Positions 11,558-55,169 of a stretch of 64,000 nt of DNA are shown piece by piece (position 1 is the first letter of the stretch; each line of letters opens with the position of its first letter). The notes beneath the pieces were generated by a model. It was not told where the DNA came from, did not search any database, and was given only the letters and a program-made list of their open reading frames with translations. Source of the stretch: Candidatus Binatia bacterium (GTDB lineage Bacteria > Desulfobacterota > Binatia > UTPRO1). A program made the position numbers and the translations under genes. The DNA is taken from NCBI GenBank assembly GCA_036496285.1, contig DASXLI010000055.1:3692-67691 (forward strand), read 5' to 3'.

Positions 11558-11561
11558 CGGC

Positions 11562-12800
<1,239 letters not shown>

Positions 12801-12833
12801 GGCCCGCCCCCCGGTCAGCTCATACTGCCGGCG

Positions 12834-14771
12834 TCAGTCCTTCCACAGGTTGTTCGCCGCGTACTTGAGCACGACGTCGACGCAGCTCTCGCAGTAGCCG
12901 TTGTCGAGGAGGTTCTTGACCATCGCGTTGTACTTGCCGGTCTGGTCCTCGTCGCGGGTGCGTGCCTTGGTGATGATGCGGCTGATGTCGCGCACCGACG
13001 TCATGAGCTTCTTCTCGATCGCCTCCTTCAAGGGCTCGTAGCTCTTGTAGGTGATGCGCTCGCCGCGCCGGCTGCCGGCCCACAGGTACGCGATGACCTC
13101 CTGGCGGAAGCCCTCGGCCGCGGAGCCGATGATCGCGATCTGCTCCTCGATCGACTTGAGGAAGCCCTCGTCGGGCTGGAGATCCTCGCGCGTGTTGCGG
13201 TCCTTCACCCGCGTCTTGTTGACGAACGCCTCCGCGTGATCGAGGTAGTTCTGGAAGAGCGCCTCGGCCTGCTCCTGGTAGGAGTAGACGAACGCCTTGG
13301 TGATCTCCTTCTCCAGGACCTCGAGGTACTCCTTGTGCAACACGTCCTGCAGGAACTCGAGGTGCTGCTTGCGGGTGTCGTCGCCGACGTCGGCTTCCTT
13401 TACCATTGCGATCAGCGCCTCGCGGACGTTGATCGGGTTGATGCAGTTGCCCTCGACGTTGTCGGAGAGCGCGTTGTCGAGCGCCTTCATGATGAAGCGC
13501 GTCGAGATGCCGCTCATGCCCTCGCGCTTGGCGTCCTCGCGCAGCTCATGGAAGTCGATCTTCTTGGTCTTGCCCTTCTCGACCACTTCCTCGCCGTTGT
13601 AGAGCTTGAGCTTCGTCATCAAATCGCACTTGTTGTTCGGCTCAAGGCGCGACAGGATCGCGAACATCGAGGCGACCTCGAGCGTGTGCGGCGCGACGTG
13701 GGCGCGGAAGTCGGAGTTGCGGATGATCTTCTGGTAGATCTTCACCTCCTCCGACAGGCGGAGGTTGTAGGGCACCCGCACCACGACGATGCGGTCGAGG
13801 ATCGCCTCGTTGGTGTGGTCGGCGCGGAACTTCTGCCATTCGGCCTCGTTCGAGTGCGCGCAGATGACGGTGTCGACGTACACGAGGCCGTGGCGGCCCG
13901 GGGCCGGGATGACCTTCTCCTGCGTCGCGGTGATCATCGCGTGCAGGTACTCGGTCTCGTTCTTGAAGACCTCGATGAACTCGACGACGCCGCGGTTGCC
14001 GACGTTCAGTGCGCCGTTCAGGTCGAGGACGCGCGGATCGCCCTCGGAGTACTGGTCGAGCTTCGAGATGTCCTCGCTGCCGATCAGCACGGAGGTGTCC
14101 TGGTTGTTGGGATCGACCGGTGGGACGACGCCGATGCCGATGCGGTTGCGCTTGGAGAAGAACTTGGTGGCGATCGGCACCTCTTCGTAGCGGCCGGCGA
14201 ACTCGTCCTTCAGCCGGTAGCGGCACACGGGGCAGAGGTCGCCCTCGATGTGCGTGCCGAGCATCTTCTCGAACTCCTTGCGCAGGTGGCGCGGGATGAG
14301 GTGCAGCGGCTCCTCGAACATGGGGCAGCCCTCGATCACGTAGATCGGTTCGCTCGCCTCGAGGCCGCGCTGCAGCTTCTCGGCCAGTGAGCTCTTGCCC
14401 GAGCCCACGGGGCCCATCAGGTAGAGGACCTGGCGGCTCTCCTCGCCCTTCAGCGAGGCGGCATGGAAGTAGCGCACGATCTGCGCGATCGTCCGCTCGA
14501 TGCCGAAGAACTCGTCCCGGAAGAAGTTGTAGACCTTGACGGACTCGTCCTTGTAGAGCCGCTTCACCCTCGGATCGTCACCCTCGAGGATGTCGGACGT
14601 GCCGATCTTGATGATCACGTCATAGAGGCGCGAGTGCGAGAGCTTGGGAAGACTCGGATCCTCACGCACGCGCTCCAGGTAGTCGAGAAACGTGCCGCGC
14701 CACGCCTTCTGCTCGTGGGCGACTCGATCGTCCTTGATCAACTTCTCAAAGACGCTCTTCCCGTTTTCCAT
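12834..14771 (-). CDS. prkA: PrkA family serine protein kinase (AAA+ N-terminal domain)
   Basis: Walker-type P-loop LMGPVGSGKSSLAEKL. About 645 aa. Conserved PrkA C-terminal domain. Confidence 0.9.
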   Translation of the reverse strand: MENGKSVFEKLIKDDRVAHEQKAWRGTFLDYLERVREDPSLPKLSHSRLYDVIIKIGTSDILEGDDPRVKRLYKDESVKVYNFFRDEFFGIERTIAQIVRYFHAASLKGEESRQVLYLMGPVGSGKSSLAEKLQRGLEASEPIYVIEGCPMFEEPLHLIPRHLRKEFEKMLGTHIEGDLCPVCRYRLKDEFAGRYEEVPIATKFFSKRNRIGIGVVPPVDPNNQDTSVLIGSEDISKLDQYSEGDPRVLDLNGALNVGNRGVVEFIEVFKNETEYLHAMITATQEKVIPAPGRHGLVYVDTVICAHSNEAEWQKFRADHTNEAILDRIVVVRVPYNLRLSEEVKIYQKIIRNSDFRAHVAPHTLEVASMFAILSRLEPNNKCDLMTKLKLYNGEEVVEKGKTKKIDFHELREDAKREGMSGISTRFIMKALDNALSDNVEGNCINPINVREALIAMVKEADVGDDTRKQHLEFLQDVLHKEYLEVLEKEITKAFVYSYQEQAEALFQNYLDHAEAFVNKTRVKDRNTREDLQPDEGFLKSIEEQIAIIGSAAEGFRQEVIAYLWAGSRRGERITYKSYEPLKEAIEKKLMTSVRDISRIITKARTRDEDQTGKYNAMVKNLLDNGYCESCVDVVLKYAANNLWKD

Positions 14772-15144
14772 AGCTGCTCCTTCCCGGCACGTGGACCGGG
14801 AGCTCGAGGGAACGGCGCGTCGTGCAGCGACGCGCGTAGCCCGCGTGCGTTGCTGTCATGCAAAAGTATAGTGGTGTGCGGAAGCCCCGAGCAAGTACGC
14901 TTCGCCGCGCATGCCGCGGAGCGGCGTTGCGTGCGCGCCGCGAACGTGCTGCCGCACGGGAGTAAGGAAGAAACGAATCGGGAGCGCCGTGACGGCGCAT
15001 CGTCCGACCGCATCATCCATCGGCCACCTGACATGGCCTACCTCCCCTCGCCCGCAGAAACGGTAGCACCGTGATTCGCGAGGTGTCAACGTCGAAGCGT
15101 TCACGGCGCTTGCGATCCGTCCGCGTTTCGCACAGGACATCCTG

Positions 15145-33648: not shown

Positions 33649-33661
33649 GCTCCCGGGCGCC

Positions 33662-35170
33662 TCATTGCACGACCGCGTACGACCACGTCTCGGTGAGGGC
33701 CTCGCCGCCCTTCTCGAGGAAGGCGCGCAGCTCGAGCGTGTCGCGCGTCTGCGGCTGGATCTGGCAGCTCAGGCGCCAGCCGCCCGTGACCTCGTTCTTG
33801 ACGACGTGCTGATCGAGGATCGTCGCCACCTCCTCGCCGTTGAGGATCGTCACTACCCCGCGTAGCACTTCGTTCGCGGGAATGCTCGCCAGCTTGCCGC
33901 CCGCGAAATCGAGGACGAAGCGGTGCGCGTTCGGCACCTTGCCGTAGTCGTGGCGGGTCGCGACGACCTTGCCGGCAGGCGGGATCCTGGGATCGTCGCC
34001 GTACCACGAGAGCACGTACGAGAAGGAGAGCGGCTCGCCCGGCTTGGGTTGCTCGCGTGGCGTCCAGAATCCCACGATGTTGTCGTTCAGCTCGGAGTTG
34101 GTGGGGATCTCGACGAGCTGGACGGCGCCCTCGCCCCAGTCGCCGCGCGGGGTGATCCACGCGCTCGGGCGCACCTCGGGGCGGGTTTCGAGGTCCTCGT
34201 AGTGGACGAAGTCGCGGTCGCGCTGCATGAGCCCGAAGCCCCGCGGGTTCGTCGCCTGGAAGCTGTTCACCTGCACCGCCTTCGGGTCCTCGAGCGGCCG
34301 CCAGAGCCACTCGCCGCTCGCGAGGTGGAGCAGCAGCCCGTCGGAGTCGTGGACCTCGGGCCGGAAGTCGACCGGACGCTCCACGGTGTTCTCACCGAAG
34401 AAGAACATGCTGGTGAGCGGCGCGATGCCGAGGCGCTGCACCGGTTTCCGGAGGAAGATCGTGCTGTCGACCGCGACCGTCGTCTTCACGCCGGGCGTCA
34501 CGACGAAGTGATACGCGCCCGTTACGCTCGGGCTGTCGAGCAGCGCGTACAGCTCGAGCTGCTTGGCCCCCGCGGCCGGCGTCACCAGCCACCACTCGCG
34601 GAAGAAGGGGAACTCCTCCGCCGACGGCAGGCCGGTGTCGATCGCGAGCGCGCGGGCCGACAGGCCGAAGCCCTCGTCCCGCCCGACGGCGCGGAAGTAG
34701 CTGGCGCCGAGGAAGACGATCAGCTCGTCGAGCCGGTTCGCCACCTTCAGCGGATAGTGGACGCGGAACCCGGCGTAGCCGAGGTCGGGCGGGATGCGGC
34801 TCGCGAACGTGTTCTTGCCGTAGTCGAAAAGGGCCGACGAGTATGGGAACGGATGCGGGCCCTGCCGATCGACGACGTTCATCGTGACCGAGCGGTCGTA
34901 GAAGAGGCCCGGATGGAAGAACTGGATGCGGAACGGCGAGCCGGTGTCCGCCCAGAGCGCCTTCTCCGGGCGGAAGCGGATGTCGCGCCACTGGTCATAG
35001 GAGATCTGGAGGAGCCAGTCCGGCACCGTGTCCTTGGTATCGTGGAACTCCTGCTGGGCGAGCTGGCGGGCCTTGGCGGTGACGTCGTCGAGGCCGAACG
35101 CCGCCGCCCGGCCGGCCGGCAGCCATGCGGCGAGCGCGCATAGGAGGAGGGCGCGGGAGCGAAGACGCAT
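33662..35170 (-). CDS. opgG: periplasmic glucan biosynthesis protein OpgG/MdoG
   Basis: Signal peptide. About 502-aa MdoG family. Immediately upstream of opgH. Confidence 0.9.
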   Translation of the reverse strand: MRLRSRALLLCALAAWLPAGRAAAFGLDDVTAKARQLAQQEFHDTKDTVPDWLLQISYDQWRDIRFRPEKALWADTGSPFRIQFFHPGLFYDRSVTMNVVDRQGPHPFPYSSALFDYGKNTFASRIPPDLGYAGFRVHYPLKVANRLDELIVFLGASYFRAVGRDEGFGLSARALAIDTGLPSAEEFPFFREWWLVTPAAGAKQLELYALLDSPSVTGAYHFVVTPGVKTTVAVDSTIFLRKPVQRLGIAPLTSMFFFGENTVERPVDFRPEVHDSDGLLLHLASGEWLWRPLEDPKAVQVNSFQATNPRGFGLMQRDRDFVHYEDLETRPEVRPSAWITPRGDWGEGAVQLVEIPTNSELNDNIVGFWTPREQPKPGEPLSFSYVLSWYGDDPRIPPAGKVVATRHDYGKVPNAHRFVLDFAGGKLASIPANEVLRGVVTILNGEEVATILDQHVVKNEVTGGWRLSCQIQPQTRDTLELRAFLEKGGEALTETWSYAVVQ

Positions 35171-35245
35171 GGGCCCGTACTGTGGCAGCCGCGACCCGGG
35201 AGATAAAGGCCCGCCAATGCGGACCGGGCCTGGACGGCGCCGCGC

Positions 35246-37961: not shown

Positions 37962-39152
37962 TCAGTCGAGACGCTCGATGATGGTGGCGTTGGCCATGCC
38001 CCCGCCCTCGCACATCGCCTGCAAGCCGAAGCGGCCGCCAGTGCGCTCGAGGATGTTGAGGAGCGTGGTCATGAGGCGTGCGCCGCTGCAGCCGAGCGGA
38101 TGCCCGAGCGCGATCGCGCCGCCGTTCAGGTTGGTCTTGCGGAGATCGGCCTTGCACTCGCGCTCCCAGGCCAGGATGACCGGCGCGAAGGCCTCGTTGA
38201 TCTCGACGACGTCGATGTCCTTGAGCGTCATGTCGGCGCGCTCGAGGACGTTGCGGGTGGCGGGAATCGGGCCGGTCAGCATGATCACCGGGTCGACGCC
38301 GCCGAGCGCGAAGGTGTGGAAGCGGGCGCGGGGCCGGAAGCCGAGCGCCTTGGCGCGCTCCTTCTCCATCACCAGTACGGCAGCCGCGCCGTCGGTGATC
38401 TGGCTCGAGTTGCCCGCGGTGATCACCCCGTCCGGCTTGAAGGCGGGCTTCAGCGCCCCCAGCTTGTCGATCGAGCTGTCCGGCCGGACGCCTTCGTCGC
38501 TGGCGATGACGTCACGCGAGCCGTCGGGACGCCGCACGTCGACCGGGACGATCTCGTTGGCGAACCAGCCGTTGCGCGCGGCGGCCGCCGCCTTGCGGTG
38601 CGACTCGACCGAGTAGGCGTCGAGCTCCTCGCGCGAGAGCTTCCACTTGTCGGCGATGATCTCGGCCGACAGGCCCTGCTGGACGAGGCCGCCCGCGCCG
38701 TACAGGTTCTCGTCGACGTAGCGCTGGATCATCGTCGGCCCGAAGGGCTGGCCGCCCGCGGCGACGCTCGTGCCCATCGGCACCCGGCTCATCGACTCGA
38801 CGCCGGCGGCGACCACGCAATCGTAGGCGCCTGCGATCACGCCCTGCGCCGCGAAGTGCAGCGACTGCTGGCTGGAGCCGCACTGCCGGTCGACGGTCGT
38901 GCCGCACACGCTGTCCGGGAAGCCGGCGGCGAGGGCGGCGTTGCGGCCGACGTTCAGGCCCTGCTCGCCGACCTGGCTCACGCACCCCATGATGACGTCC
39001 TCGATCTCGGCGGGATCGATGCCGACGCGTTTCACGAGCGCGCGCAAGGTATGCGCGGCGAGATCGACGGGGTGCACGGGGTAGAGCGCACCGGTCTGCT
39101 TCCCTCGGCCCAGCGGGGTGCGAACGGCATCGACGATCACGGCTTCACGCAT
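37962..39152 (-). CDS. acetyl-CoA C-acyltransferase (thiolase)
   Basis: Thiolase active-site regions [10 protein letters not shown] and [11 protein letters not shown]. Confidence 0.9.
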
Positions 39153-39282: not shown

Positions 39283-42051
39283 TCAATGCGTCTTGCCCTT
39301 GAAGCTCTCCGCATCGTTCTGCTGGATGTCGAAGCCGTCCTCGTAGTCGGCTCCCCAGCAACGCCGGGTGGTACCATCGGCGCGCCGCAGCTGGACGGTG
39401 AGCCGCGGGACCACCGGCGTGGCAGGAAGCTCGAGCGCGGCGCCGCGCCCCTTCAAGAAGATCTTTGCGCGCCCGTCACCATCGTGCAGCTTGACGTCCG
39501 TGAGCCCGTCGCTCGCCGCCGATCGGTCCTTGTAGGTGAACCCGCCGTTGGTGAAGCGCCAGCATGGCGAGCCGCCGCAGCTCAGCGCGCCAACCGGCGG
39601 GCTCGCGGCCAGCAGTAGGACGGGATCGCCGCCGGGCCCTGATCGATCGTAGACGCAGAGCGTGTAGCGGCTCACGGTGAGCGGATTGCCGAAGTCGTTT
39701 TCCACGGTGCTGCCGTGGTTCCACCGCCAGACGAGCCTGCGATGGGCGGGGTCAGCGCCTTGCCGCATGAGGAGCCGGGTCGAGCCGGCAGACATACAGG
39801 TGGGCTCCGGGACGGGATTGCCGGCGCAGACACCGCCGAGACAGCGATCGAACGTGCAGAGGTTGCCGTCGTCGCACGCCGTGCCGTCGGGGAATGCCGG
39901 CGACGAGTAGACACAGGCGCCGGTGCCGCCATCGCAAAAGCCAGGGCTCGCATGGCACTGCGTGTCGCACTCGATCGGCGCGTTGCGACATCCCGTGCCG
40001 GGATCGGCGCCCGCACCGCCCGGGTCGCAGCTGTCGGTGGTGCACAGGTTGCCGTCATCGCAGTCGGCGGCCGAGGTGCAGATGGTAATGCTGGTCGTGC
40101 TCCGGAAGATGCCGTCTACCGCCGCGGCGTAGGCCGTTGCGCCCGTGGTCGGATCGACGGCGAACCCTTGCACGTAGTTGCTCAGGCCCGCGGAGCTGAC
40201 CGAGTTCCAGGTGGCGCCCGAATCAGTGGACTTGTCCACGGTCATCTGGTCGGCAGCGAAGAGGGTAGCCGGGTGGAGCGGATCGATCGCGAGCGGGCTG
40301 CCGCCGCCGCTCGGCCCGACCAAGGTCCATGAGGCGCCCGCATCGGCGCTCCGGTACACCCCCAGCGCCTCGACGTAGAGGATGTCGGAGTTCGTCGGAT
40401 CGATGATCACGTTGCTGAAGCCGATGCTCGACGGGTTTGGAAAGCCGTTGTTGATGGCCGTCCAGGAGGCGGCGCCGTCGAGACTCTTGAACACGCCGTG
40501 AAACGCGAGGCTCGCGTAGACCGTTCCCTCGTGCTGCGGGTCGGGTGCCACCGACATGATGAAGGGAATCGGCAGTCCGCTGTTCATCACGGCCCACGTC
40601 GCTCCGCCGTCGGCGCTCTTCTGGAAGCCGTCGCCTTGCGTGCCCATGTAGAGCACCGACGGCGCCAGGGGATCGACGGCGATCCAGTTGACGAAGGGCG
40701 CGTTCTGCGCGGCGCTCCATGTCCAGGTGGTCCCCGCATCACTGCTGCGGAAGATGCCACTGGTCGTGGCCAGGTAGATCTTCGCCGAGTCGGTCGGGTC
40801 GATCACGACCTGCAGGACGTTCGCATCCGCGATGGCGGAGGTGAACGCCGGCGTCCGCGCCGCGGGTCCGATCTGCGACCACGACACGCCGCCGTCGACG
40901 CTCTTCACGACGCTCGCCGGACCGTCGGCATTGCCGCCGCCGTACAACGTCGCGGGGGCGTGCGGATCGACCGCGACCGTCACCATGCCCGTGTGCCTGA
41001 TGCCGCTCGTGCGCAATGCCCACGTCGCGCCAGCGTCGGTGCTGCGGAACACGCCGCCCTGCGTGCCGGCAAAGACGATCGACGGAAGGATCGGAATCAA
41101 CGCGAGGCCGTCGACGACGTGCCCCTCGAGTCCGCTGCCAAGCGGTGCCCACGTGGCCGCGAAGTCCGTGCTGACGAACACCGGGTGCTGCGCATCGTCG
41201 GTGAGGGCGGCGTACAGCGTCCCCGCGGTCCCCGGCTGCGCCGCGAGAGCGACGACGCAGCCCGTCGCGCTCGGCAATCCCGTGTTGCTCGCGCTCCACG
41301 TGCTGCCACCGTCGATGCTGCGATACATCCCCAGCGCGCAGCCGCCCGCGTACACCTTGCTCGAACTCGTCGGGTCGACGGCCAGGAACTGCACGCCTGG
41401 GCCCGGGAGGCCGGTGGTGCTGAGCGTCCACGTCGACGCGCCGTCGCTGCTCTTGAAGACGCCGTCGAACGTGGCGGCGTAGAGGACCTGCGGGTTGGCG
41501 GGATCGATGGCCAGCGCCGACACGACGAGCTGCGTCAGGCCGCTATTGGAGGCGCTGAAGAGACCACCGCCGTTCGTGCTGCGGTACACGCCATGTTGCG
41601 TCGCCAGATACAGATTGCTCGGGTTGAGCGGATCGATCACGAATGCCGCGTACGGATCGCTGGGCGTACCGATGGTGGAGCTCCAGCTCGCCCCGCCGTT
41701 CGTGCTGCGGTACACGCCGCCGAAGGTGGCGGCAAAGAGGATCTGTGAGTTGTGAGGATTGACGACGATCTGGCTGACGGCGAGGGTCCCGAGGCCGATG
41801 CTCGAGAGCGTCCAGCTCATGCCGCCGTTCGAGCTCTTGTAGATGCCGCGCCCCTCGCCGTCGTCCGGGCCGGCGAAGACCGCGGCATAGACGGTCGATG
41901 GATTCCCGGGGTCGACGGCGATTGCGCTGATCGTACCGCCGTCCGGGCCGATCGGCACCCACGCCCGCCCAACACCGGGTGACAAGACGATGAACGGAAG
42001 CGTCGCGAGAAGCACACGTCGGGCGAGCAGGGTGAGAAGGGGGATTCGCAT
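39283..42051 (-). CDS. large secreted BNR/Ycf48-like repeat protein with Myxococcus-type Cys-rich repeats and a conserved C-terminal module
   Basis: Signal peptide MRIPLLTLLARRVLLATLPFIVLS. About 13 S-x-D/N-G-G-x-S/T-W BNR repeats. CxxDxxCxxxxGxC repeats (DCDDGNLCTTDSCD...). A C-terminal roughly 170-aa module is shared with the FG-GAP protein at 51691..53694. Confidence 0.8.
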   Translation of the reverse strand: MRIPLLTLLARRVLLATLPFIVLSPGVGRAWVPIGPDGGTISAIAVDPGNPSTVYAAVFAGPDDGEGRGIYKSSNGGMSWTLSSIGLGTLAVSQIVVNPHNSQILFAATFGGVYRSTNGGASWSSTIGTPSDPYAAFVIDPLNPSNLYLATQHGVYRSTNGGGLFSASNSGLTQLVVSALAIDPANPQVLYAATFDGVFKSSDGASTWTLSTTGLPGPGVQFLAVDPTSSSKVYAGGCALGMYRSIDGGSTWSASNTGLPSATGCVVALAAQPGTAGTLYAALTDDAQHPVFVSTDFAATWAPLGSGLEGHVVDGLALIPILPSIVFAGTQGGVFRSTDAGATWALRTSGIRHTGMVTVAVDPHAPATLYGGGNADGPASVVKSVDGGVSWSQIGPAARTPAFTSAIADANVLQVVIDPTDSAKIYLATTSGIFRSSDAGTTWTWSAAQNAPFVNWIAVDPLAPSVLYMGTQGDGFQKSADGGATWAVMNSGLPIPFIMSVAPDPQHEGTVYASLAFHGVFKSLDGAASWTAINNGFPNPSSIGFSNVIIDPTNSDILYVEALGVYRSADAGASWTLVGPSGGGSPLAIDPLHPATLFAADQMTVDKSTDSGATWNSVSSAGLSNYVQGFAVDPTTGATAYAAAVDGIFRSTTSITICTSAADCDDGNLCTTDSCDPGGAGADPGTGCRNAPIECDTQCHASPGFCDGGTGACVYSSPAFPDGTACDDGNLCTFDRCLGGVCAGNPVPEPTCMSAGSTRLLMRQGADPAHRRLVWRWNHGSTVENDFGNPLTVSRYTLCVYDRSGPGGDPVLLLAASPPVGALSCGGSPCWRFTNGGFTYKDRSAASDGLTDVKLHDGDGRAKIFLKGRGAALELPATPVVPRLTVQLRRADGTTRRCWGADYEDGFDIQQNDAESFKGKTH

Positions 42052-42463
42052 GCGGCACCTCGAGCGCGGCGGTCGTGGGTTGCGAGGCCGGAAAGGGAAG
42101 GTGCCGCCGCGACGGCCTGCGAGCTGTACCACGCAGGGTTTCGAGCGCCAAGCGAAATCGCCCGCTCCGAGGCGCGACCGCCGAACTCTAACCCGCGTCG
42201 GGAGGAAGCAACTACGATCTGCGTCGCGGTCGCCGAATTGGCGCACGAATTTCGCTCCCTATGCGATCCGCAACGTGGGTACGCGCACTGCCCCATCCAG
42301 CGGCGAATGGCGGATCACGCACGTCCACGACTCGGTGCCGTTCGCGATGGACGGCAGCGGCCGCGCCCTCCTCGACTTGAAGCCCTGAGGTGCGCGTCGC
42401 AGCCGTCGTTTGGCTGTGGCCGCGCGCGTCGCTACGGTGACCCCAACCCCCGGAGGATTGGCC

Positions 42464-44359
42464 ATGTACCGTTTCGCCTCGAAGCCTCGGCCGCGCGTGC
42501 AGATCGCCGATGCCATCGCCGTCGCGCTCGCGCTCGTCTCCGTGCTGATCGCGCCGCGGCTCGTGCCGGCGGCGAACGTGACGCTCACGGCGAAGGATGC
42601 CGGCGGCGCCGTGCTGGCCACGAACGTCGAGAACGTGCCGCTGGGGACCGTGGCGCGTCCGATGCGCCTGGGCGGCAACGCGTTCGTGCCGATCACGTTG
42701 CAAGACGCGGGCGACACCACGTGCGGCGCCGGGCGGCTCGACGGGGCGGGGACGCCCTGCGCGGCGGGCAACGCGCGTGAGTGGACGATCGAGACGGGGT
42801 CGGTGGCGAATCTGCCGGGCGTCGCGAGCCTCACGATCGAGGTCGGCGCGCCTTCGGAGGTCTGCGACTGCACGTCGAGCTTCGCGTCGAGCCGCTGCTG
42901 CGCCACGACGTCGATGGTCGCGACCGGGTCGCCGAGCGGCGGCACGCATTCGCTGCGCTTCCTGCTGCCGCCGCCGAGCGCCGGCTGCGCCGTCGCAATC
43001 GTGGGCCAATGCGAGGGCGCCGCGTGCGTGAAGCTTGCGACGACGCCCTCCGGGACCGTGCTGCAGCTCGACGACGTCGATCAGAACGGACGCTGTGAGT
43101 GGCCGCCGGGTCAGACGAAGATCGCCGGGACGCTGCGCTTCGACGCCGCGACGCCGATCGAGTTCAGCGGCAACACCACGATCCGCGCCGGGGAGATCGT
43201 CGTCGAGGACGGCGGGCTGCTCGCGAGCGTCGCCACGACCACGTTCGACGCCTTCGCCGCCCACGACCTGACGCTGATCGCCACGGGATCGATCACCGCG
43301 CGCGGGCGGCTCGATCTCGTGGTGGCGGACGACCTCGCGCTCGAGGCCGACAACGGCGACCTCACGCTCCTCGGCTCGACGACGTTGCGCGCGGCCGATC
43401 ATGCGACGATCGTGGCGCGCGCCGCCGACGTCACGATCGTCGCGCCCGCGGCAGAGCCCGGCGATGTCTTCGGCGGGAGCCTCGCGGCCGTCCTCGCCCC
43501 CGGCCCCGCCGGCAACATCGCCATCACCGGGCACGTCCACGTCGGATCGCACCGCCGGGTGGCGGTGTCGAATCGTACCGGGGTCTCGGTTGTCGGGACG
43601 AAGGAGCTGCGCGTCGCCGATGGCGCCGTCCTCACCACCGATCAGGCGCGTACCGGGACCGCCGGCACGACGCCGAGCGACGTCGAGCTGCGCGCGAGCG
43701 GGCCGATCGTCGTGAGCGGCGACGTCCTGGTCGACTCGGGGCGGAACATCCGCATCCAGAGCGACAATCCACACGCGCAGATATGTCTCGCTGGCGGCGC
43801 TACGCTCGAGGCGGCACGGCCGGAGCGCGCTGGCGACGCGATCGCGACTGGACGGATCGTCCTCGCCGGCGCTACGACGCCGATCTTCGATGACGGGACG
43901 ACGACGTTCGCCGGCAACCTCCGCGGCAACGTGCAGCAGGGCGCGTGCGGTCCGGCGGCGACCCCGACGATCGCCGCGACCGGCGGCGCGCCGGGCGCAA
44001 CCCCGTCCGCTCCGGCACCGTCGGCGACGGCGACGCCCGGCGCCGCGGAATGGCGATTCTACGTGCGCATCGCCCGCGACTTCGGCACCGACACCAATGT
44101 GCACGTTCCGCGGACCTCGACCGAGCCGCCGATCGTGATCGCGATTCCCGACGCGGAGGTCTCGCTGTTCCGTAGCGGCGATCAAGTGGCGGCTGACGAG
44201 ATTGCCGCCGCGGATCCGGACACGCTCGCGCGCCTGACCGACGCGGCGGCGGCACACATCGCGGGCCACCCGGACGACTACCCCGGCTTCACCTCCGTGG
44301 TGACGCTCGTCTGGGCCGAGCGCCAGCGCCCAGGGCCGTCGCCGACGCCGACCCCGTGA
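42464..44359 (+). CDS. hypothetical secreted protein, probably beta-helix-like (Thr/Ala/Gly-rich repeats)
   Basis: Good RBS (GGAGGA) 6 nt upstream of the ATG. Signal peptide IADAIAVALALVSVLIA. No recognisable catalytic motif. Confidence 0.55.
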   Translation: MYRFASKPRPRVQIADAIAVALALVSVLIAPRLVPAANVTLTAKDAGGAVLATNVENVPLGTVARPMRLGGNAFVPITLQDAGDTTCGAGRLDGAGTPCAAGNAREWTIETGSVANLPGVASLTIEVGAPSEVCDCTSSFASSRCCATTSMVATGSPSGGTHSLRFLLPPPSAGCAVAIVGQCEGAACVKLATTPSGTVLQLDDVDQNGRCEWPPGQTKIAGTLRFDAATPIEFSGNTTIRAGEIVVEDGGLLASVATTTFDAFAAHDLTLIATGSITARGRLDLVVADDLALEADNGDLTLLGSTTLRAADHATIVARAADVTIVAPAAEPGDVFGGSLAAVLAPGPAGNIAITGHVHVGSHRRVAVSNRTGVSVVGTKELRVADGAVLTTDQARTGTAGTTPSDVELRASGPIVVSGDVLVDSGRNIRIQSDNPHAQICLAGGATLEAARPERAGDAIATGRIVLAGATTPIFDDGTTTFAGNLRGNVQQGACGPAATPTIAATGGAPGATPSAPAPSATATPGAAEWRFYVRIARDFGTDTNVHVPRTSTEPPIVIAIPDAEVSLFRSGDQVAADEIAAADPDTLARLTDAAAAHIAGHPDDYPGFTSVVTLVWAERQRPGPSPTPTP

Positions 44360-44436
44360 CGCGCCACGCGCCGTGAGCCCGGACGATTGACGCTCGCGCG
44401 CGGACCGATGCACAGTAGACGGGGAGGCGCACACCA

Positions 44437-45498
44437 ATGGCGCGTCGGATCTCCGGGGTAGTCGCCGCGGCGCTGGTTTTCGGGCTCGCGGCGCTCGCAC
44501 ACGGCGGCATGCTGCACGTGGCCGGCAACGGCGTCGACGGCCCCAGCTGCGGGATCGGCGGGCCGTCGCCGTGCGGCGGCAAGGCGAACCCGTGCCGCTC
44601 GATCACCTGCGCGATCAGGGTCGCCGCGGCCGGCGACGCGATCGTCGTCGGTCCCGGCGTCTATGGAGACCTCAACCAAAATGGAACGCTCAACGAGACC
44701 GGCGAGGAGGGCGGCGAGGCCTACGCCCCCGGGTGCGCCTGCGTGGTCGCGGTCAACAAGCCCGTAAGCATCACCTCGAGCGACGGCGCGGCGTCGACCA
44801 TCATCGAGGCACGGACCGTGAACGTCGTCCAGAACGTGCTCGTGATCACCGAGGGGGGCGAGTTCGGCAAGCCAGGGAAGGGCTTCACGGTGACCCAGAC
44901 CCAGCAATCGACCGGCGACGGCATCGTGATCGACTCCACGAACGTCAAGGTGCGGGGCAACGAGGTCGTCGGCCGGGAGACGGCGTTGCTCTCCGCCGTG
45001 GGCATCGATACCGTGGCGGCGCCGGAAACGATCCTCATCGAGGCCAATCACGTCGTTGGATGGGGCGTCGGAATCCGCGCGCAAAGCACCGGCAAGACGC
45101 TGCGCGCGAATCAGGTCGCGACGAACATCCACGGCATCGAGGCGGCGGCGGGCCTCGTCGTCGGCAACGTCGCGACGCAGAACAGCGAGGTCGGGATCTC
45201 GCTCTCCGGTCCGGTGACTGCGACCGGGAACGCCGCGTACGGGAACGGCAGCGAGGGCGGATTCCGCGTGCTCGGCTCCTTCACCGGCACGCTCGAGAAG
45301 AACAACATCTATGGCAATGGCTGCGGTCTGGAGAACCTCGGGATCCTCGGGCTCTCGGTCGCGAAGAACTTCTGGGGTGCCGCGATCAGACCCGGTCCCG
45401 ACCCGGCCGATGACGTCTGCGATCTGGACGGCGGCACGACGAGCGCGCCCCAGCCGGCGTCGAAGCCGTTCAAGGTGAAGGCGCCGATCAAGTTGTGA
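44437..45498 (+). CDS. secreted right-handed parallel beta-helix repeat protein (pectate-lyase-fold / NosD-like)
   Basis: Signal peptide. Repeated hydrophobic-Asn/Gly turn units (IVIDSTNVKVRGNEV..., ILIEANHVVGWGVGI..., NNIYGNG). Confidence 0.65.
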   Translation: MARRISGVVAAALVFGLAALAHGGMLHVAGNGVDGPSCGIGGPSPCGGKANPCRSITCAIRVAAAGDAIVVGPGVYGDLNQNGTLNETGEEGGEAYAPGCACVVAVNKPVSITSSDGAASTIIEARTVNVVQNVLVITEGGEFGKPGKGFTVTQTQQSTGDGIVIDSTNVKVRGNEVVGRETALLSAVGIDTVAAPETILIEANHVVGWGVGIRAQSTGKTLRANQVATNIHGIEAAAGLVVGNVATQNSEVGISLSGPVTATGNAAYGNGSEGGFRVLGSFTGTLEKNNIYGNGCGLENLGILGLSVAKNFWGAAIRPGPDPADDVCDLDGGTTSAPQPASKPFKVKAPIKL

Positions 45499-45648
45499 CC
45501 GCCCAGGTGCGCCGCAGGTCGACGGCGCCTTCGCAAAGCCGGGAATCCGCGGCCAATCGTTGTCATCCCTCGGAAACGGTCGGCGCCGTCATCGCTTGCG
45601 GCAGCAGCGTCGCGTCATGGCATCGGGCTTGCTGCCCGTCCTCCAATC

Positions 45649-47415
45649 GTGGCTCGCATGGTCGAGGATCTCGTCATCGGAATGGCCGGCTCGGGCGGCG
45701 ACGGCATCGTGAGCGCGGGCGAATCGCTGATCTCGGCCTGCGCCGCCATGGGCTATCACGCCATGATGACGAAGAGCTTCGGCTCGCAGATCCGCGGCGG
45801 CGAATCCTCCTGCCGCGTTCGAATGGCGACCGGTGCCGTCCGTAATCCCGGCGGGACGCTCGATGTTGCCGTCGCGCTCAACTGGGAGGACTTCCTCAAG
45901 TTCGGTGCCGAGCTGCCGGTCGGCGACGACACGCTGGTGCTCTACGAGGCGAAGACCGGCGTGGCGCCGGACGCCCTGCCGCTCGACGGAGTCACGCCGG
46001 CCGAAGCGGTCGCGGTGCCGATCGCGGACATGGCCCGGACGGCTACCGGAAGCGACAAGGGCAAGAGCAGCGTCGTGCTCGGTCTGCTCGCAGGTTGGTG
46101 CGGGATCGGCCGGGACGCGATCCTCGCAGGCATCCGGAAGAAATTTGCGAAGAAGGACGAGCGGTTGGTCGAGGCGAACGAGAAAGCGTTCGCCCTCGGC
46201 GTCCAGTACGCCGAGGCGCATCCGCTGGCGACGCCGCGCACCATCGAGCCCGCCGTTGCGGGCGAGCCGAGGATGCTCACCGACGGCAACGACATCTGCG
46301 CCGCCGCAGCCATCTTCGCCGGCTGCGACTTCTTCAGCGGGTACCCGATCACGCCGTCGACGGAGGTGATGCAGCTCTTCACGCGCGAGATCTGGAAATA
46401 CGGCGGCGCCGTCCTGCAAGCGGAGGACGAGATCGCCGGCATAGGCGCCGCGCTCGGCGCCTCCTTCGGCGGCAAGAAGGCCATGACCGCAACGTCGGGT
46501 CCGGGCATGTCGCTCAAGACCGAGATCATGGGCCTGGCGTCGATTGCCGAGCTTCCGCTCGTCGTCGTGGACGTGCAGCGCGGCGGTCCGTCGACCGGCA
46601 TGCCGACCAAACCCGAGCAGTCGGACGTGTTCCAGGCGATCTTCTCCGCGCACGGTGACGTGGTCAGGCCGGTACTCGCGCCGACCTGCGTGTCGGACAC
46701 GTTCGAGGTCACCGTCGAGGCGTTCAACATCGCGGAGCAGTTCCAGACGCCGGTGGTGGTCCTGTCCGATCAGGAGATCGCGCAGCGCAAGGAGGTCATC
46801 GAGGTCATCGACACCGCGCGCTTCCAGGTGGTCGAGCGTCAGCGCCCCGATGCCGCCGAGCTTGCGCGGTACGAGCGTTTTCGCTTGACGGCAAACGGCG
46901 TCAGCCCGGTTTCGCATCCCGGGATGCAGGGCGGCAACTACGTCGGCGCCGGCATCGAGCACGACGAGCACGGCGATCCCACGGCAAACGGCCGCGTCCA
47001 TCAGCGCATGAACGAGAAGCGTCTCCACAAGCTCGACCCGTTGCGCGAGCGCGACGACCTGCTTCGCATCGAGGGTGACCCGAGCGCGCCTCTGGCGCTC
47101 GTCAGCTGGGGCTCCACCGCCGGCGTGTGCCGCGAGGCGCTGGATCTCGCGACCGCCCAGGGGCTACGCGTCAAGCTCCTGGTGCCGTACCTGCTCTACC
47201 CGGTGAACGAGCGCGTCTATCGCGGGTTTTTCGCGACCGTCCAGGCCGGCCTGGTCGTGGAGCAATCCTATCTCGGTCAGCTCTACCGCGTGTTGCGGAT
47301 GATGGTGGACGTCCCCGCCGGGCTCGAGTCCTTCTGCCGTTCCGGCGCCAACCCGTTTCGTCCCGCTGAGATCGTGCGGGAGCTGCAGCTTCGTGCCGGA
47401 AAGGAGTCCCGATGA
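45649..47415 (+). CDS. korA: 2-oxoacid:ferredoxin oxidoreductase subunit alpha (KorA)
   Basis: Fused gamma-alpha architecture, about 588 aa, with a pyruvate-flavodoxin/ferredoxin oxidoreductase domain. Stop overlaps the korB start. Confidence 0.85.
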   Translation: MARMVEDLVIGMAGSGGDGIVSAGESLISACAAMGYHAMMTKSFGSQIRGGESSCRVRMATGAVRNPGGTLDVAVALNWEDFLKFGAELPVGDDTLVLYEAKTGVAPDALPLDGVTPAEAVAVPIADMARTATGSDKGKSSVVLGLLAGWCGIGRDAILAGIRKKFAKKDERLVEANEKAFALGVQYAEAHPLATPRTIEPAVAGEPRMLTDGNDICAAAAIFAGCDFFSGYPITPSTEVMQLFTREIWKYGGAVLQAEDEIAGIGAALGASFGGKKAMTATSGPGMSLKTEIMGLASIAELPLVVVDVQRGGPSTGMPTKPEQSDVFQAIFSAHGDVVRPVLAPTCVSDTFEVTVEAFNIAEQFQTPVVVLSDQEIAQRKEVIEVIDTARFQVVERQRPDAAELARYERFRLTANGVSPVSHPGMQGGNYVGAGIEHDEHGDPTANGRVHQRMNEKRLHKLDPLRERDDLLRIEGDPSAPLALVSWGSTAGVCREALDLATAQGLRVKLLVPYLLYPVNERVYRGFFATVQAGLVVEQSYLGQLYRVLRMMVDVPAGLESFCRSGANPFRPAEIVRELQLRAGKESR

Positions 47416-48287
47416 GTCTCCCGCCTAACCTCACGCCCCAGGACTTCAAGAGCGATCTCAAGCCCATCTGGTGTCCGGGATGCGGCGACTTCGGCGTCCT
47501 GCAGGCGATCTGTCGCGCGCTCGCCGCCATCGGACGACCGCCGCACGAGATCGCGTTCATCTCGGGCATCGGCTGCTCTTCGCGCATTCCCGGCTACACG
47601 GCTGCCTATGGCTTCAACAGCGTGCACGGGCGCGCTTTGCCGATCGCGCAAGGTCTCAAGCTGGCGCGGCCGGAGCTGCTCGTGCTCGTCGCGGGCGGCG
47701 ACGGCGACGGCTTCTCGATCGGCGGCGGCCACGTGCCGCATGCGGTTCGCCGCAACGACGACCTCACCTACATCGTGATGGACAACCAGATCTACGGCCT
47801 GACCAAGGGGCAACTCTCGCCCACCAGCCCGCAGGGACTGCACACCGTCACGTCGGGCTATGGCAGCCTCGAGAGCCCGGTCAATCCCCTGCTGTATGTG
47901 CTCGCGTATGGCGCGCCGTTCGTCGCGCAAGGGACGCCGGCCGACATGCCGGGCCTCACCGCGATGATCGAGGAGGCGATTCGTTTTCCCGGGTTCGCTT
48001 TCGTGAACGTGCGCTCGCCCTGCGTCACCTACGGCGAGGCGGATCAGCAGATCAAGATCCACAAGACCGTGATGCGCCGCCTCGAGGACCTCGATCACGA
48101 TCCCGGCAATCGCATCCAGGCGCTGGAGAAGGCCGAGACCTACGGCCAGGCGTTGCTCACCGGCATCTTCTACCGCAACCCGGCGCCCCGCCCGACGCTC
48201 GGCGCCGTCGTGCGCGAGCGCCAGCAGCAACTGATGGCCGGCGCTGCGCCACGCGACCGCATCCTCGACATGTTCGTCCAGCACTGA
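47412..48287 (+). CDS. korB: 2-oxoacid:ferredoxin oxidoreductase subunit beta (KorB, TPP-binding)
   Basis: Motifs WCPGCGDFG and GGDGDGFSIG. Confidence 0.85.
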   Translation: MSLPPNLTPQDFKSDLKPIWCPGCGDFGVLQAICRALAAIGRPPHEIAFISGIGCSSRIPGYTAAYGFNSVHGRALPIAQGLKLARPELLVLVAGGDGDGFSIGGGHVPHAVRRNDDLTYIVMDNQIYGLTKGQLSPTSPQGLHTVTSGYGSLESPVNPLLYVLAYGAPFVAQGTPADMPGLTAMIEEAIRFPGFAFVNVRSPCVTYGEADQQIKIHKTVMRRLEDLDHDPGNRIQALEKAETYGQALLTGIFYRNPAPRPTLGAVVRERQQQLMAGAAPRDRILDMFVQH

Positions 48288-51690: not shown

Positions 51691-53694
51691 ATGCGTCTGT
51701 CGTCTGCGCCGCTCACGGCGCTTCTCGTTTTTCTCGCCGTCCCGGCCGTACACGCGAGCCAGCCGCAGGTCGTGTCTACCAGCCCCGCGCGCCTGGCATT
51801 CGCGCCCGCGACGACGACGATCAGCGTTACCTTCGACCAGGCGCTGCTGCCGGCGTCGGTGACGAGCGCGAGCCTGCGCGTCTTCGGGCGCTCGAGCGGC
51901 ACGGTGAGCGGCGCGATCGCCCTCTCCAACGGCGACAAGACCGTCACGGTCACGCCGTCGCATCCGTTCTCGGCGGGCGAGATCGTGCTGGTGAACCTGT
52001 CGCACGACATCAAGGCGGCGGACGCGACGCCCCTCCGGTCGGCCGGCTACGCGTACCAGTTCTGGATCTCGACCAAGCCGGCGACGCGCAGCTTCGCCGA
52101 GATCCAGAAGTTCTCCAACCGGAACGGTCCGGACAACACGCGCATCTACGGCGCGCTCGCGACCGACTTCAACGGCGACGGCTTCATCGATCTCGGCACC
52201 GTGAACGAGGACAGCGCCGACGTGCGGGTCTTCCTCAACACCGCCGACGGCTCCGGCAAGTACGACGTGCCTTTCGTCCCCCCGCCGGTACCGGTGGGCG
52301 TGGAGTCGAGCCCGAACGAGCCCGCCGATGTCGACAACGACGGCAAGACCGACGCCGTCATCTCCTCGACCGACGCGCCCGGCATCTTCGTGCTGCACGG
52401 CCACGGTGACGGCACGTTCGACGGCACGCAGATGATCACGACCGGCGCCGAGGCGCACGGTGTCGCGGTGCTCGACGTCGACGGCGACGGCGACCTCGAC
52501 ATCGCCGAGGCGCTCCAGGGCGCGAGCAGCGACGAGATGGCGCTGCTCATCAACGACGGAACGGGCCACTACGGCACGCCGACCTTCTTCGACAGCAGCT
52601 GCAGCGGCGAGTGGGGCCTTGGCTCCGGCGACATGAACAACGACGGCATCACCGACCTCGTCGTCGGCTGCGTCAACGACCAGAAGGTCTCGGTGATGCT
52701 GGGCAACGGCGACGGCACCTTCACCGTGCTGCCGGCGCAGAACGCGGGCGGCCAGCCGTGGCAGGTCGCGATCGGCGACCTCGACGGCGACGGCAATCTC
52801 GACGCCGCGCTGGCGCTCGCCAACAGCACTGACGGCGGCGGCATCCTGCTCGGGAACGGCGACGGCACGTTCAAGCCCGTCGTGACCTATGCGATGCCGG
52901 GCCATACGCCGTCGAGCAAGCTCGGCGACCTCGACGGCGACGGTGATCTCGACTGGGTGCTGTCGAGCTTCGGCGCCGGTCTCTGGCGCATCTACGTGAA
53001 CGACGGTAGCGGCGCGTTCACCAAGGACCAGGACATTCCCGCGGACTCGAATCCATCGTGCTCCGTCCTGCTCGACATCGACAACGACGGCGACCTCGAC
53101 ATGGCGTTGAGCGACGAGATCGCCGACACCGTGAAGATCATGCAGAGCGAGAACCCGCCGAGCCTGCTCTGTCCGCCGGCGCCGGCGACGTGCCGCGCGC
53201 CGTTCGTCCCGGGCAAGGCGTCGATTCTCATGAAGGACAAGACGCCCGACAAGGGCGACCAGATCGTCTGGAAGTGGATCAAGGGGCCGACGACGCCGCT
53301 CGGCGACTTCGCCGACCCCGTCACGACGGACGACTACGCGCTCTGCATCTACGACGCCGGCGCGCTGGTCACGAGCGCCGCCGCCGACCACGGCGGCCTC
53401 TGCCGCGGCAAGCCCTGCTGGACGACGAAGCCGACGGCCATCCAGTACAAGAACCGCGACGCGTCCCCGAGCGGCACGCAGAGCATCAAGCTCAAGCCGG
53501 GCGCCCTCGACGGCAAGGCATCGATCACCTTCAAGGCGAAGGGCGACAAGGTCGTCCTGCCCGACCTCGGCGCGTTGACCGGCCCGGTCGTCGTGCAGCT
53601 CCAGCGCAGCGGCGGCGCCCCGTGCTTCGGGGCGACCTACAGCGCGCCCTTCCTCAAGCAGGACGCGGCGAACTTCAAAGACAAGGCCGACTGA
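51691..53694 (+). CDS. secreted FG-GAP/VCBS-repeat beta-propeller protein with N-terminal Ig-like domain and conserved C-terminal module
   Basis: Signal peptide MRLSSAPLTALLVFLAVPAVHA. Seven DxDGDGxxD repeats (FNGDGFIDL ... LDIDNDGDLDM). C-terminal roughly 170-aa module shared with the BNR protein at 39283..42051. Confidence 0.8.
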   Translation: MRLSSAPLTALLVFLAVPAVHASQPQVVSTSPARLAFAPATTTISVTFDQALLPASVTSASLRVFGRSSGTVSGAIALSNGDKTVTVTPSHPFSAGEIVLVNLSHDIKAADATPLRSAGYAYQFWISTKPATRSFAEIQKFSNRNGPDNTRIYGALATDFNGDGFIDLGTVNEDSADVRVFLNTADGSGKYDVPFVPPPVPVGVESSPNEPADVDNDGKTDAVISSTDAPGIFVLHGHGDGTFDGTQMITTGAEAHGVAVLDVDGDGDLDIAEALQGASSDEMALLINDGTGHYGTPTFFDSSCSGEWGLGSGDMNNDGITDLVVGCVNDQKVSVMLGNGDGTFTVLPAQNAGGQPWQVAIGDLDGDGNLDAALALANSTDGGGILLGNGDGTFKPVVTYAMPGHTPSSKLGDLDGDGDLDWVLSSFGAGLWRIYVNDGSGAFTKDQDIPADSNPSCSVLLDIDNDGDLDMALSDEIADTVKIMQSENPPSLLCPPAPATCRAPFVPGKASILMKDKTPDKGDQIVWKWIKGPTTPLGDFADPVTTDDYALCIYDAGALVTSAAADHGGLCRGKPCWTTKPTAIQYKNRDASPSGTQSIKLKPGALDGKASITFKAKGDKVVLPDLGALTGPVVVQLQRSGGAPCFGATYSAPFLKQDAANFKDKAD

Positions 53695-53987: not shown

Positions 53988-55169
53988 ATGCGTGAAGCCG
54001 TCATCGTTGCGAGCGCCCGCACCCCGCTCGGCAAGTCATTCCGCGGCAGTCTGAACGCCACCCGGCCGGACGACATGGCCGCGACCGCGATCAAGGGCGC
54101 GCTCGCCAAGGTGCCGCAGCTGTCGGTCAAGGAGATCGAGGACGTGATCTGCGGGTGCGGCCTTCCGGAGGGACCCTCGGGGATGAATGTCGCGCGCGTG
54201 GCGACGCTCGCGGCCGGGCTGCCCGAGACGATCGCGGCGACGACGGTGAACCGCTTCTGCTCGTCGGGCCTGCAGGCGATCGGCATGGCGGCGCATCAGA
54301 TCATCAACGAGGGCGCGAACGCCGCGATCGGCGCCGGCACCGAGTCGATCTCGATGGTGCAGGGCCAGCAGAACATGAACAACCTCGTGAACTCGCGGGT
54401 GCAGGAGCTCTGGCCGGGCCTCTACATGGGCATGGGGCAGACCGCGGAGATCGTCGCCGAGCGCTACAAGATCTCGCGCGAGGACCAGGACAAGTACTCG
54501 CTCCTGAGCCAGCAGCGCACCGGCGCGGCGCAGCGCGACGGCAGGTTCTCCGAGATCATCCCGATGAAGGTGAAGAAGGCGGTGAAGGACGAGTCCGGCA
54601 ACCTCAAGTTCGAGGATGCCGAGATCACCAAGGACGAGTGCAACCGCCCCGATACGACGCTCGAGGGCCTGCAGAAGCTGAAGCCCTCGTTCAAGGAGGA
54701 CGGCACGGTCACGGCCGGCAACGCCTCGCAGCTCTCCGACGGCGCGTCAGCGACGATCCTGATGTCGCGCGAGCGCGCCAAAGAGCTCGGCATCGAGCCG
54801 CTCGGCATCTTCCGCGGCGTTGCGGTCGCCGGCTGCCGACCGGAGGAGATGGGGATCGGTCCGGTGTTCGCGGTGCCGAAGCTCCTCAAGCGCCACGGCC
54901 TCACCATGAAGGACATCGACATCGTCGAGCTGAACGAGGCCTTCGCCTCGCAGCTCCTCTACTGCCAGCGCCAGCTCGAGATCCCCGACGAGAAGCTGAA
55001 CCCGCTCGGCGGCTCGATCTCGATCGGCCACCCGTACGGCATGACGGGCTCACGCATGGTGGGTCAGCTCCTCGGCGAGCTGCGCCGGCGGAAGCAGAAG
55101 TACGGCCTGGTCACGATGTGCGTCGGCGGCGGCATGGGAATGGCGGGCCTGTTCGAGGCCTGCTGGTAG
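53988..55169 (+). CDS. acetyl-CoA acetyltransferase (thiolase)
   Basis: Thiolase motifs VNRFCSSGLQA, NEAFASQ and GHPYGMTGSRM. Good RBS AAAGGAGA. Confidence 0.9.
   Translation: MREAVIVASARTPLGKSFRGSLNATRPDDMAATAIKGALAKVPQLSVKEIEDVICGCGLPEGPSGMNVARVATLAAGLPETIAATTVNRFCSSGLQAIGMAAHQIINEGANAAIGAGTESISMVQGQQNMNNLVNSRVQELWPGLYMGMGQTAEIVAERYKISREDQDKYSLLSQQRTGAAQRDGRFSEIIPMKVKKAVKDESGNLKFEDAEITKDECNRPDTTLEGLQKLKPSFKEDGTVTAGNASQLSDGASATILMSRERAKELGIEPLGIFRGVAVAGCRPEEMGIGPVFAVPKLLKRHGLTMKDIDIVELNEAFASQLLYCQRQLEIPDEKLNPLGGSISIGHPYGMTGSRMVGQLLGELRRRKQKYGLVTMCVGGGMGMAGLFEACW

Follow-up and report, generated by a model that had tools for sequence, protein, structure and literature searches.

A 64,000-nucleotide stretch of DNA (the window) from a 72.7-kb contig of a Candidatus Binatia metagenome-assembled genome (MAG; contig DASXLI010000055.1) raises the question of why two exported repeat proteins that are otherwise unrelated should end in the same kind of C-terminal region. 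Open reading frame (ORF) A encodes a protein of 667 amino acids (51691..53694, plus strand) identical to HEY2387406.1, an 'FG-GAP-like repeat-containing protein'. ORF B encodes a protein of 922 amino acids (39283..42051, minus strand) identical to HEY2387397.1, hypothetical protein VGK30_10575. An initial annotation of the window proposed that the two proteins carry a homologous C-terminal module, and that the module has a common sorting, anchoring or ligand-binding role. The first part of this proposal is confirmed here, and the module turns out to be a C-terminal domain that occurs promiscuously on exported proteins. As for the second part, it is possible that the module holds a variety of passenger proteins at one place in the cell envelope or its surroundings, and this possibility is weighed below against several others.

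The shared module and its predicted fold

The module comprises residues 494-667 of ORF A (copy A; 53170..53691, plus strand), where it begins with CPPAPATCRAP and ends with FKDKAD, and residues 742-922 of ORF B (copy B; 39286..39828, minus strand), where it begins with CAGNPVPEPTC and ends with FKGKTH. Searches with either module using tblastn found only these two copies in the window. Alignment of the two C-termini by BLASTP gave 35% identity over 173 amino acids with an E-value of 2e-25 under composition-based statistics, and the Smith-Waterman score of 220 compares with 31 +/- 5 for 2000 shuffled sequences, the best of which scored 64 (z = 36). The similarity therefore is not an effect of composition, and the low-complexity resemblance that the initial annotation had considered as a way in which its claim might fail does not account for it. 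A chance resemblance or an annotation artefact might have been suspected in a window that is 70% G+C and contains many spurious ORFs, but both ORFs correspond to deposited proteins, the G+C content at the third codon position of their coding frames is 0.86-0.89, and the module has thousands of homologues. Such an explanation has next to no probability.

Conservation of the module was assessed from 162 aligned sequences, with residue numbers that begin at the SENPP of ORF A. The module starts with the consensus C-x3-P-x2,3-C-R-x-P-x3-G-K-A-x-L and ends with the consensus F-K-[DA]-K-[AS]-D. It had been stated that both proteins end in FKxK, which is incorrect since two further residues follow this motif in each of them. 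Six cysteines (C9, C16, C67, C86, C91 and C160) are each at least 94% conserved, and the conserved cysteines are residues 494, 501, 552, 571, 576 and 645 of ORF A and residues 742, 752, 799, 825, 830 and 898 of ORF B. The cysteines noted initially are thus conserved, although the 'two to three' pairs should be read as three potential pairs. C86 and C91 are jointly lost in two sequences, which supports a bond between them, and this paired loss together with the conservation of all six cysteines fits a disulfide-containing domain that functions outside the cytoplasm. Other nearly invariant residues are W42, W44, G47, T50, G56, P58, Y64, Y69, W92, G110, G119, A125, G133, Q151 and L152. The mean isoelectric point of the module is 8.3. 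The similar motifs GKAxLxLKD and GKAxIxxKGKG hinted at an internal duplication, but this was ruled out by an hhalign probability of 3.5%. Transmembrane helices are absent from the module, as had been claimed, given that the maximum Kyte-Doolittle value for a 19-residue segment is 0.99 in copy A and 1.22 in copy B.

AlphaFold2 produced confident all-beta models of both copies. Copy A was modelled with 11 strands (mean predicted local distance difference test score, pLDDT, 92.1; predicted template-modelling score, pTM, 0.89) and copy B with 12 strands (pLDDT 90.9; pTM 0.88). The predicted strands are short, ranging from 4 to 12 residues, and the FKDK motif lies in the final strand of both models. 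Foldseek searches of PDB with both models and of BFVD with the copy A model returned no match at E<=1e-3. The best template-modelling (TM) scores were 0.30-0.34, to generic C2, Ig or MD-2-like sandwiches, the best 50 matches from each PDB search having been inspected. A beta-trefoil was considered from the number of strands and rejected, since no trefoil was present among the Foldseek matches listed and the module has no internal repeat. From sequence conservation and the models, the module, which comprises about 165-181 amino acids, is predicted to be an autonomous all-beta domain with stabilising disulfides.

Membership of an already characterised family, the other way in which the claim might have failed, finds no support in Pfam, NCBIfam or PDB profile searches. 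At E<=10, no Pfam family matched the two modules or a set of 16 module sequences, and no NCBIfam model matched the module. A Pfam scan of 80 full-length carriers likewise left the module covered by no family, and weak Pfam matches such as that to DUF7137 (E~0.2) were dismissed as noise. Sequence-profile searches of PDB with two alignments, A1 and A4, gave only noise at E~0.5 and zero matches, respectively. No description of the module was found in literature searches, and databases name its carriers 'hypothetical' or 'cysteine-rich repeat protein'. The module is therefore an unnamed new domain family, and a very large one.

Carriers of the module and their distribution

A word-indexed search retrieved 17 relatives of A and one of B. 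A profile (A1) built from 16 module sequences was run against 1.84 billion cluster representatives and matched 7,459 of them at E<=1e-3, 6,104 at E<=1e-10 and 1,915 at E<=1e-30. Carriers are 160 to 1,900 amino acids long. Of the 148 best representatives, 141 (95%) have the end of the module no more than six residues from the C-terminus. Genuinely internal or tandem copies make up about 4%, with six such proteins among these 148. Three of the six (P0019, P0020 and P0023) have a module followed by a Ser/Thr linker, a DUF4215 or Disintegrin domain and a second module, and in the other three (P0062, P0111 and P0146) the module is followed by a linker and another domain. P0019 (1006 amino acids) was recovered in full length from at least seven contigs and P0146 from several, which argues that the internal and tandem copies are not assembly artefacts. 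Since these copies keep the FK[AD]K[AS]D motif, the module seems to work without a free C-terminus and not to be an obligate terminal signal. In P0087, P0089 and P0128, a short conserved tail of the form G-S-P-S-G-A-F-[IL]-D-A-T comes right after the FKAKAG with which the module ends.

The passengers to which the module is attached are varied. Pfam domains in 80 carriers include DUF4215 Cys-rich repeats (14), Disintegrin (6) and the DUF5122 propeller (5), as well as FG-GAP, Lactonase, Lcl_C, GSDH, Sortilin/BNR, Kelch, Peptidase_S8, Peptidase_M64 and a SASA esterase. No glycoside hydrolase or polysaccharide lyase is found among the best 25 of the 51 partner families in these carriers, and a single SASA esterase is the only carbohydrate-active candidate in those 25. 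The repertoire of DUF4215 repeats, FG-GAP, DUF5122 'delta-60' propellers and Lcl_C presumably resembles that of Myxococcota surface proteins. Proteins that genuinely consist of a signal peptide and the module only are limited to P0014, P0136 and P0147, and most other short profile matches are fragments from contig edges. By a crude test, signal-peptide-like N-termini are present in at least 58 of 82 carriers that begin with methionine and have at least 330 amino acids, and carriers that lack one mostly appear to be truncated at the 5' end. A lipobox was found in only two of the 82, which suggests that the carriers do without a lipid anchor.

ORF A and ORF B are typical of this arrangement in having a signal peptide, a repeat-containing core and the module at the C-terminus. 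In ORF A (all features on the plus strand), a Sec-type signal peptide, MRLSSAPLTALLVFLAVPAVHA followed by S (51691..51756), was read from the sequence and with a heuristic signal-peptide test. It precedes a Big_5 bacterial Ig-like domain at residues 24-125 (51760..52065; Pfam E=3e-11) and a region of FG-GAP and FG-GAP_3 repeats with a Pro-rich linker (52066..53169, outer limits approximate; Pfam E=2.9e-38), in which Pfam matches six stretches, the best being residues 315-373. Genes that resemble ORF A at two of the loci described below, L011 and L013, were set aside since the part they have in common with it is only the FG-GAP repeats. In ORF B (all features on the minus strand), a probable Sec signal peptide, likewise read from the sequence, spans residues 1-30 (41962..42051; ending in SPGVGRA, followed by W). 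BNR, Sortilin-Vps10 and Ycf48-like repeats then occupy residues 59-656, approximately (40084..41877; NF045728, E=2.9e-64; PF15902, E=6e-27), and are followed by Cys-rich 'DGNxCT' repeats of the Dicty_CTDC/DUF4215-like kind at residues 657-741 (39829..40083; Pfam). The Pfam matches of ORF B are to Sortilin-Vps10, PSII_BNR and BNR along with a Dicty_CTDC-type Cys-rich repeat, and its NCBIfam match is to the BNR-type 'F510_1955 glycosylhydrolase'. Repeats of the DGNxCT kind also lie upstream of the module in many other members of the family.

Metagenomic proteins from other lineages that are homologous to ORF B in its BNR core have varied C-terminal appendages. Among 120 of these, one (P0281) has the C-terminal domain (CTD) of the type IX secretion system (T9SS), PF18962, where ORF B has the module, and one (P0190) has a hydrophobic-tail signal at the equivalent position. 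These sorting tags are weakly informative with regard to the role of the module. Other homologues, including P0195, P0202, P0215, P0270, P0272 and P0177, P0187, P0222, P0256, have recurrent unannotated C-termini of the types '...ILDVNGYFE' and '...DT.AFATCP', which suggests, judging from sequence, that further unnamed C-terminal modules may have been swapped onto the same BNR passenger. P0182 and P0232 bear the Joint Genome Institute (JGI) label 'TIGR03437 family'.

The distribution of the module was surveyed in one genome per GTDB species with a single narrow conserved peptide pattern, and taxonomy was taken from the labels of the submitters. The 32 loci recovered are labelled Candidatus Binatia (14), Deltaproteobacteria (10), unclassified (4), Polyangiaceae (2, including UTPRO1), Myxococcales (1) and Gemmatimonadota (1), the last of these being a frameshifted fragment. 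The family thus appears to occur almost exclusively in Candidatus Binatia and in MAGs closely related to it, a conclusion that is provisional because of the narrow pattern and the use of submitter labels. Multiple copies per genome are evident in MAG MFD05442.bin.2.52, whose contigs hold at least seven carriers. Carrier genes also occur as tandem pairs or triplets at three loci (L013, 1035..8744; L003, 3799..12073; L030, 2..4511), and these clusters account for four extra copies in approximately 330 kb of flanking DNA. The tandem carriers indicate local expansion of the gene family in some Binatia-like MAGs, and extrapolation suggests that a genome may possess tens of carriers.

Tether, secretion tag or ligand-binding domain

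The location of 95% of copies at the C-terminus, the dozens of passenger domains and the Sec signal peptides all fit the common sorting, anchoring or ligand-binding role that was proposed initially, but they do not choose among the three. Two of the more specific versions of that proposal fare less well, as a secretion-system recognition domain is weakened by the true internal and tandem copies, and a carbohydrate-binding domain is weakened by the scarcity of carbohydrate-active passengers. The reading that is tentatively preferred, with a probability of about 0.4, is that the module is a lineage-specific tether or targeting domain which attaches variable passengers to one common partner in the envelope or matrix. 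Carriers are directed to Sec export by their signal peptides. The six conserved cysteines would then be oxidised in the periplasm, and the folded module would bind its common partner, candidates for which are a docking protein and constituents of the envelope or matrix of the same cell. Binding of this sort would keep dozens of passenger types per genome at one place, including beta-propellers, Cys-rich adhesin-like repeats, proteases and esterases, and the most plausible destination would be the envelope or matrix of the cell itself. The homology between otherwise unrelated proteins, the huge size of the family, the diversity of passengers, the few lipoboxes and the restriction of a multi-copy family to one lineage count in favor of a tether, as does the rarity of carbohydrate-active enzymes among the passengers. 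The predominantly C-terminal position, the signal peptides, the six conserved cysteines, the confident all-beta models and the periplasm indicated by the MdoG/MdoH genes of the window also fit a tether. Since the module seems to function without a free C-terminus, a binding or tether domain suits the data better than a terminal signal.

Several points weigh against a tether. No conserved neighboring gene is found in the 32 loci or the window. The carriers could simply be periplasmic. A simple binding domain does not need to be C-terminal in 95% of cases, a bias which is equally expected of a secretion tag. Moreover, the taxonomic restriction is that of one narrow peptide pattern and submitter labels, and the 7,459 profile matches come without taxonomy.

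The closest parallel for a secretion tag is the T9SS CTD, a folded beta-sandwich found at the C-terminus of many unrelated Sec-exported proteins, with many copies per genome and within one phylum (PMC4804311, PMC11285876). The module resembles the T9SS CTD of Bacteroidota (Por_Secre_tail, PF18962 / TIGR04183) in being C-terminal on unrelated Sec-exported proteins. The T9SS CTD is a compact Ig-like beta-sandwich of seven strands (3+4) and approximately 70-100 amino acids (PMC11285876), whereas the module is roughly twice as large (165-181 amino acids), has 11-12 predicted strands and six conserved cysteines, is sometimes internal or tandem, and has Binatia as its host. Pfam and NCBIfam searches at E<=10 gave no match between the module and the T9SS CTD models (PF18962, TIGR04183 and the type B model TIGR04131), and T9SS CTD chains were absent from the best 50 matches of each Foldseek search of PDB. 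Components of the T9SS machinery (SprA/Sov, PorK/L/M/N, PorU/V) were not seen among the neighbors that recur across the 32 loci or among selected ORFs of the window, which were the genes examined.

By analogy with that system, the folded module might be recognised in the periplasm by a Binatia-specific outer-membrane translocon or sortase-like enzyme, and possibly be removed, so that the passenger is either released or covalently attached to the surface. The extreme C-terminal position of 95% of copies would be explained in this way, as would the diverse cargo with Sec signal peptides and no other anchor, the many paralogues per genome in a restricted lineage, and the rarity of stand-alone signal-peptide-plus-module proteins. 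It follows the same logic as that described for the T9SS CTD (PMC4804311, PMC11285876), and the CTD of P0281 and hydrophobic tail of P0190 are further examples of tags at the module's position. Nevertheless, a secretion tag is unlikely to be the correct explanation. Internal and tandem copies precede linkers and further domains, and some of them were found repeatedly in independent assemblies. The FK[DA]K[AS]D motif is in the last beta-strand of the models and is kept internally, and it is therefore structural rather than a signal that depends on a free carboxylate. There is no candidate machinery gene near any carrier, and the module has neither sequence nor fold similarity to T9SS CTDs in the profile searches and the Foldseek matches inspected. 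An undescribed pathway peculiar to Binatia, in which the module would serve as the cargo tag and folded proteins with disulfide bonds would be carried from the periplasm to the cell surface or fixed there, has correspondingly low odds. It would parallel the T9SS CTD and PorU-PorV or the sortase-type systems in function, while relying on a beta fold that is unrelated to theirs and possibly new.

Alternatively, the module could be a domain similar to a lectin or carbohydrate-binding module (CBM) that lends its passenger affinity for an external ligand such as a polysaccharide, a host or prey surface or a mineral. The module is comparable to CBMs and bacterial lectin-like beta-sandwiches in its size, predicted all-beta fold and modular fusion to other domains. 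It is autonomous and tolerates internal and tandem placement as CBMs do, numerous aromatic, Asp and Lys residues are conserved in its predicted beta-sandwich-like fold, some of its passengers are hydrolases (Peptidase_S8, M64 and SASA esterase), and sugar-binding sandwiches and C2 domains are among the weak Foldseek matches. On the other hand, the module has no Pfam CBM or lectin match even at E<=10 and no PDB profile match, and the Foldseek TM scores are at most 0.34. Glycoside hydrolases and lyases are essentially absent among the scanned passengers, most of which are propellers or Cys-rich repeats without catalytic activity. CBMs move widely between phyla, and it would be atypical of them to be C-terminal in 95% of copies and apparently limited to a single lineage. 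In the alignment, the conserved Trp and Tyr residues alternate with hydrophobic residues in the strands, so they probably occupy core positions rather than an exposed platform. A role in binding external ligands is consequently rather doubtful. A domain that aids folding or stability or mediates oligomerisation, acting as a C-terminal intramolecular chaperone, pro-domain or multimerisation module without a role in targeting, is more improbable still. In its favor, the module is compact, contains disulfides and terminates large proteins with many repeats, and the C-terminal pro-domains of secreted proteases (PPC type) offer a precedent. However, the passengers have folds with no common folding need, rare stand-alone copies exist, nothing in the data points to oligomerisation, and the very high number of paralogues argues for a shared cellular function.

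Other known C-terminal and retention domains help to place a tether among described systems. MYXO-CTERM, PEP-CTERM and GlyGly-CTERM signals are borne by the substrates of myxosortase, exosortase and rhombosortase, respectively. These signals are C-terminal and lineage-specific, and a genome has them on dozens of its surface proteins. They consist of about 25-35 amino acids in which a short motif is followed by a transmembrane helix and a basic tail (PMC11980579; 10.1101/2023.06.07.544157; PMC1569441). The module differs from them in being soluble and about 175 amino acids long, with neither their motif nor a hydrophobic helix nor a basic tail, and with no NCBIfam match, so the initial statement that it is neither MYXO-CTERM nor PEP-CTERM holds. 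Dockerin, SLH and other non-covalent retention modules may be a better analogy for the proposed tether, in that they are autonomous, mostly terminal, attached to varied passengers and bound to one common partner. Dockerin, which binds Ca2+, is a helical duplication of about 70 amino acids and SLH is helical as well, whereas the module is unrelated to either in sequence and fold. A comparable case is TIGR03437 ('Soli_cterm') of Solibacter usitatus, a C-terminal domain of unknown function that has expanded on many exported proteins of one soil lineage. It is a different family, given that no NCBIfam model matched the module at E<=10 and that NCBIfam presumably incorporates the TIGRFAMs models. 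DUF4215 and the Myxococcus Cys-rich repeat (PF13948, TIGR02232; about 40-47 amino acids) are repeats of a kind that lies upstream of the module but not inside it. The C-terminal barrel of autotransporters and other outer-membrane proteins (PF03797) is amphipathic, about 250-300 amino acids long and ends with an aromatic residue, in contrast to the module, which has no Pfam match, short strands, conserved cysteines and Asp or His at its end. In its working, the module would be most like the known C-terminal targeting and retention domains, though it belongs to none of these families.

Genomic setting and significance for Binatia

The genes near the two carriers in the window are metabolic and encode thiolases, a P450, a 2-oxoacid:ferredoxin oxidoreductase, a glutathione S-transferase and an ABC transporter-type ATPase. 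An all-versus-all BLAST of the called genes of the 32 loci and the window revealed no recurrent neighbor or machinery gene except for orthologous synteny among L007, L010 and L019, and the carriers are therefore dispersed and without adjacent machinery. A gene for an acetyl-CoA acetyltransferase-like thiolase lies 3' of each carrier in the window and in the same orientation (37962..39152, minus strand, and 53988..55169, plus strand). Segmental duplication of a carrier together with a thiolase was considered and rejected, since identity between the two thiolases is only 41% and the carriers in the 32 loci have no thiolase beside them. The adjacency is probably a coincidence.

Several other genes of the window were noted. 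The region at 31027..35245 (minus strand) encodes an MdoH-like family 2 glycosyltransferase (GT2; 914 amino acids) and MdoG (E=1e-188) for synthesis of osmoregulated periplasmic glucan, which indicates a diderm envelope with a periplasm. Divergent from ORF B are two adjoining genes on the plus strand for further unannotated exported proteins. One of these proteins has 656 residues, an N-terminus resembling a signal peptide and no match in Pfam (42389..44356), the other is a NosD/right-handed beta-helix protein (44419..45495), and neither has the module. Between the carriers is a two-subunit 2-oxoacid:ferredoxin oxidoreductase (45499..48284, plus strand; POR/POR_N and TPP_enzyme_C/PFO_beta_C). 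A PrkA/DUF444/SpoVR cluster, which is a conserved operon associated with stress or starvation, is located at 10130..14855 (minus strand).

Binatia (Binatota) are abundant uncultured bacteria of soil, sediment and sponges, and to our knowledge nothing is known of their cell surface. The main genomic survey of Binatota makes no mention of secretion or the envelope (PMC8262859). The module marks a large part of the exported proteome of these bacteria, amounting to thousands of clusters and to several, and probably tens of, copies per genome. If it is a sorting or anchoring tag, it would offer a computational route to the machinery for envelope targeting by way of partial phylogenetic profiling, the approach by which exosortase and myxosortase were discovered. 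A module that does no more than bind would still be a candidate for a new fold with three disulfides, having no structural relative in PDB that Foldseek could detect. Naming the domain would annotate thousands of proteins that are now called 'hypothetical', and the named domain would be a ready marker for the surface and secreted proteome of Binatia in metaproteomics.

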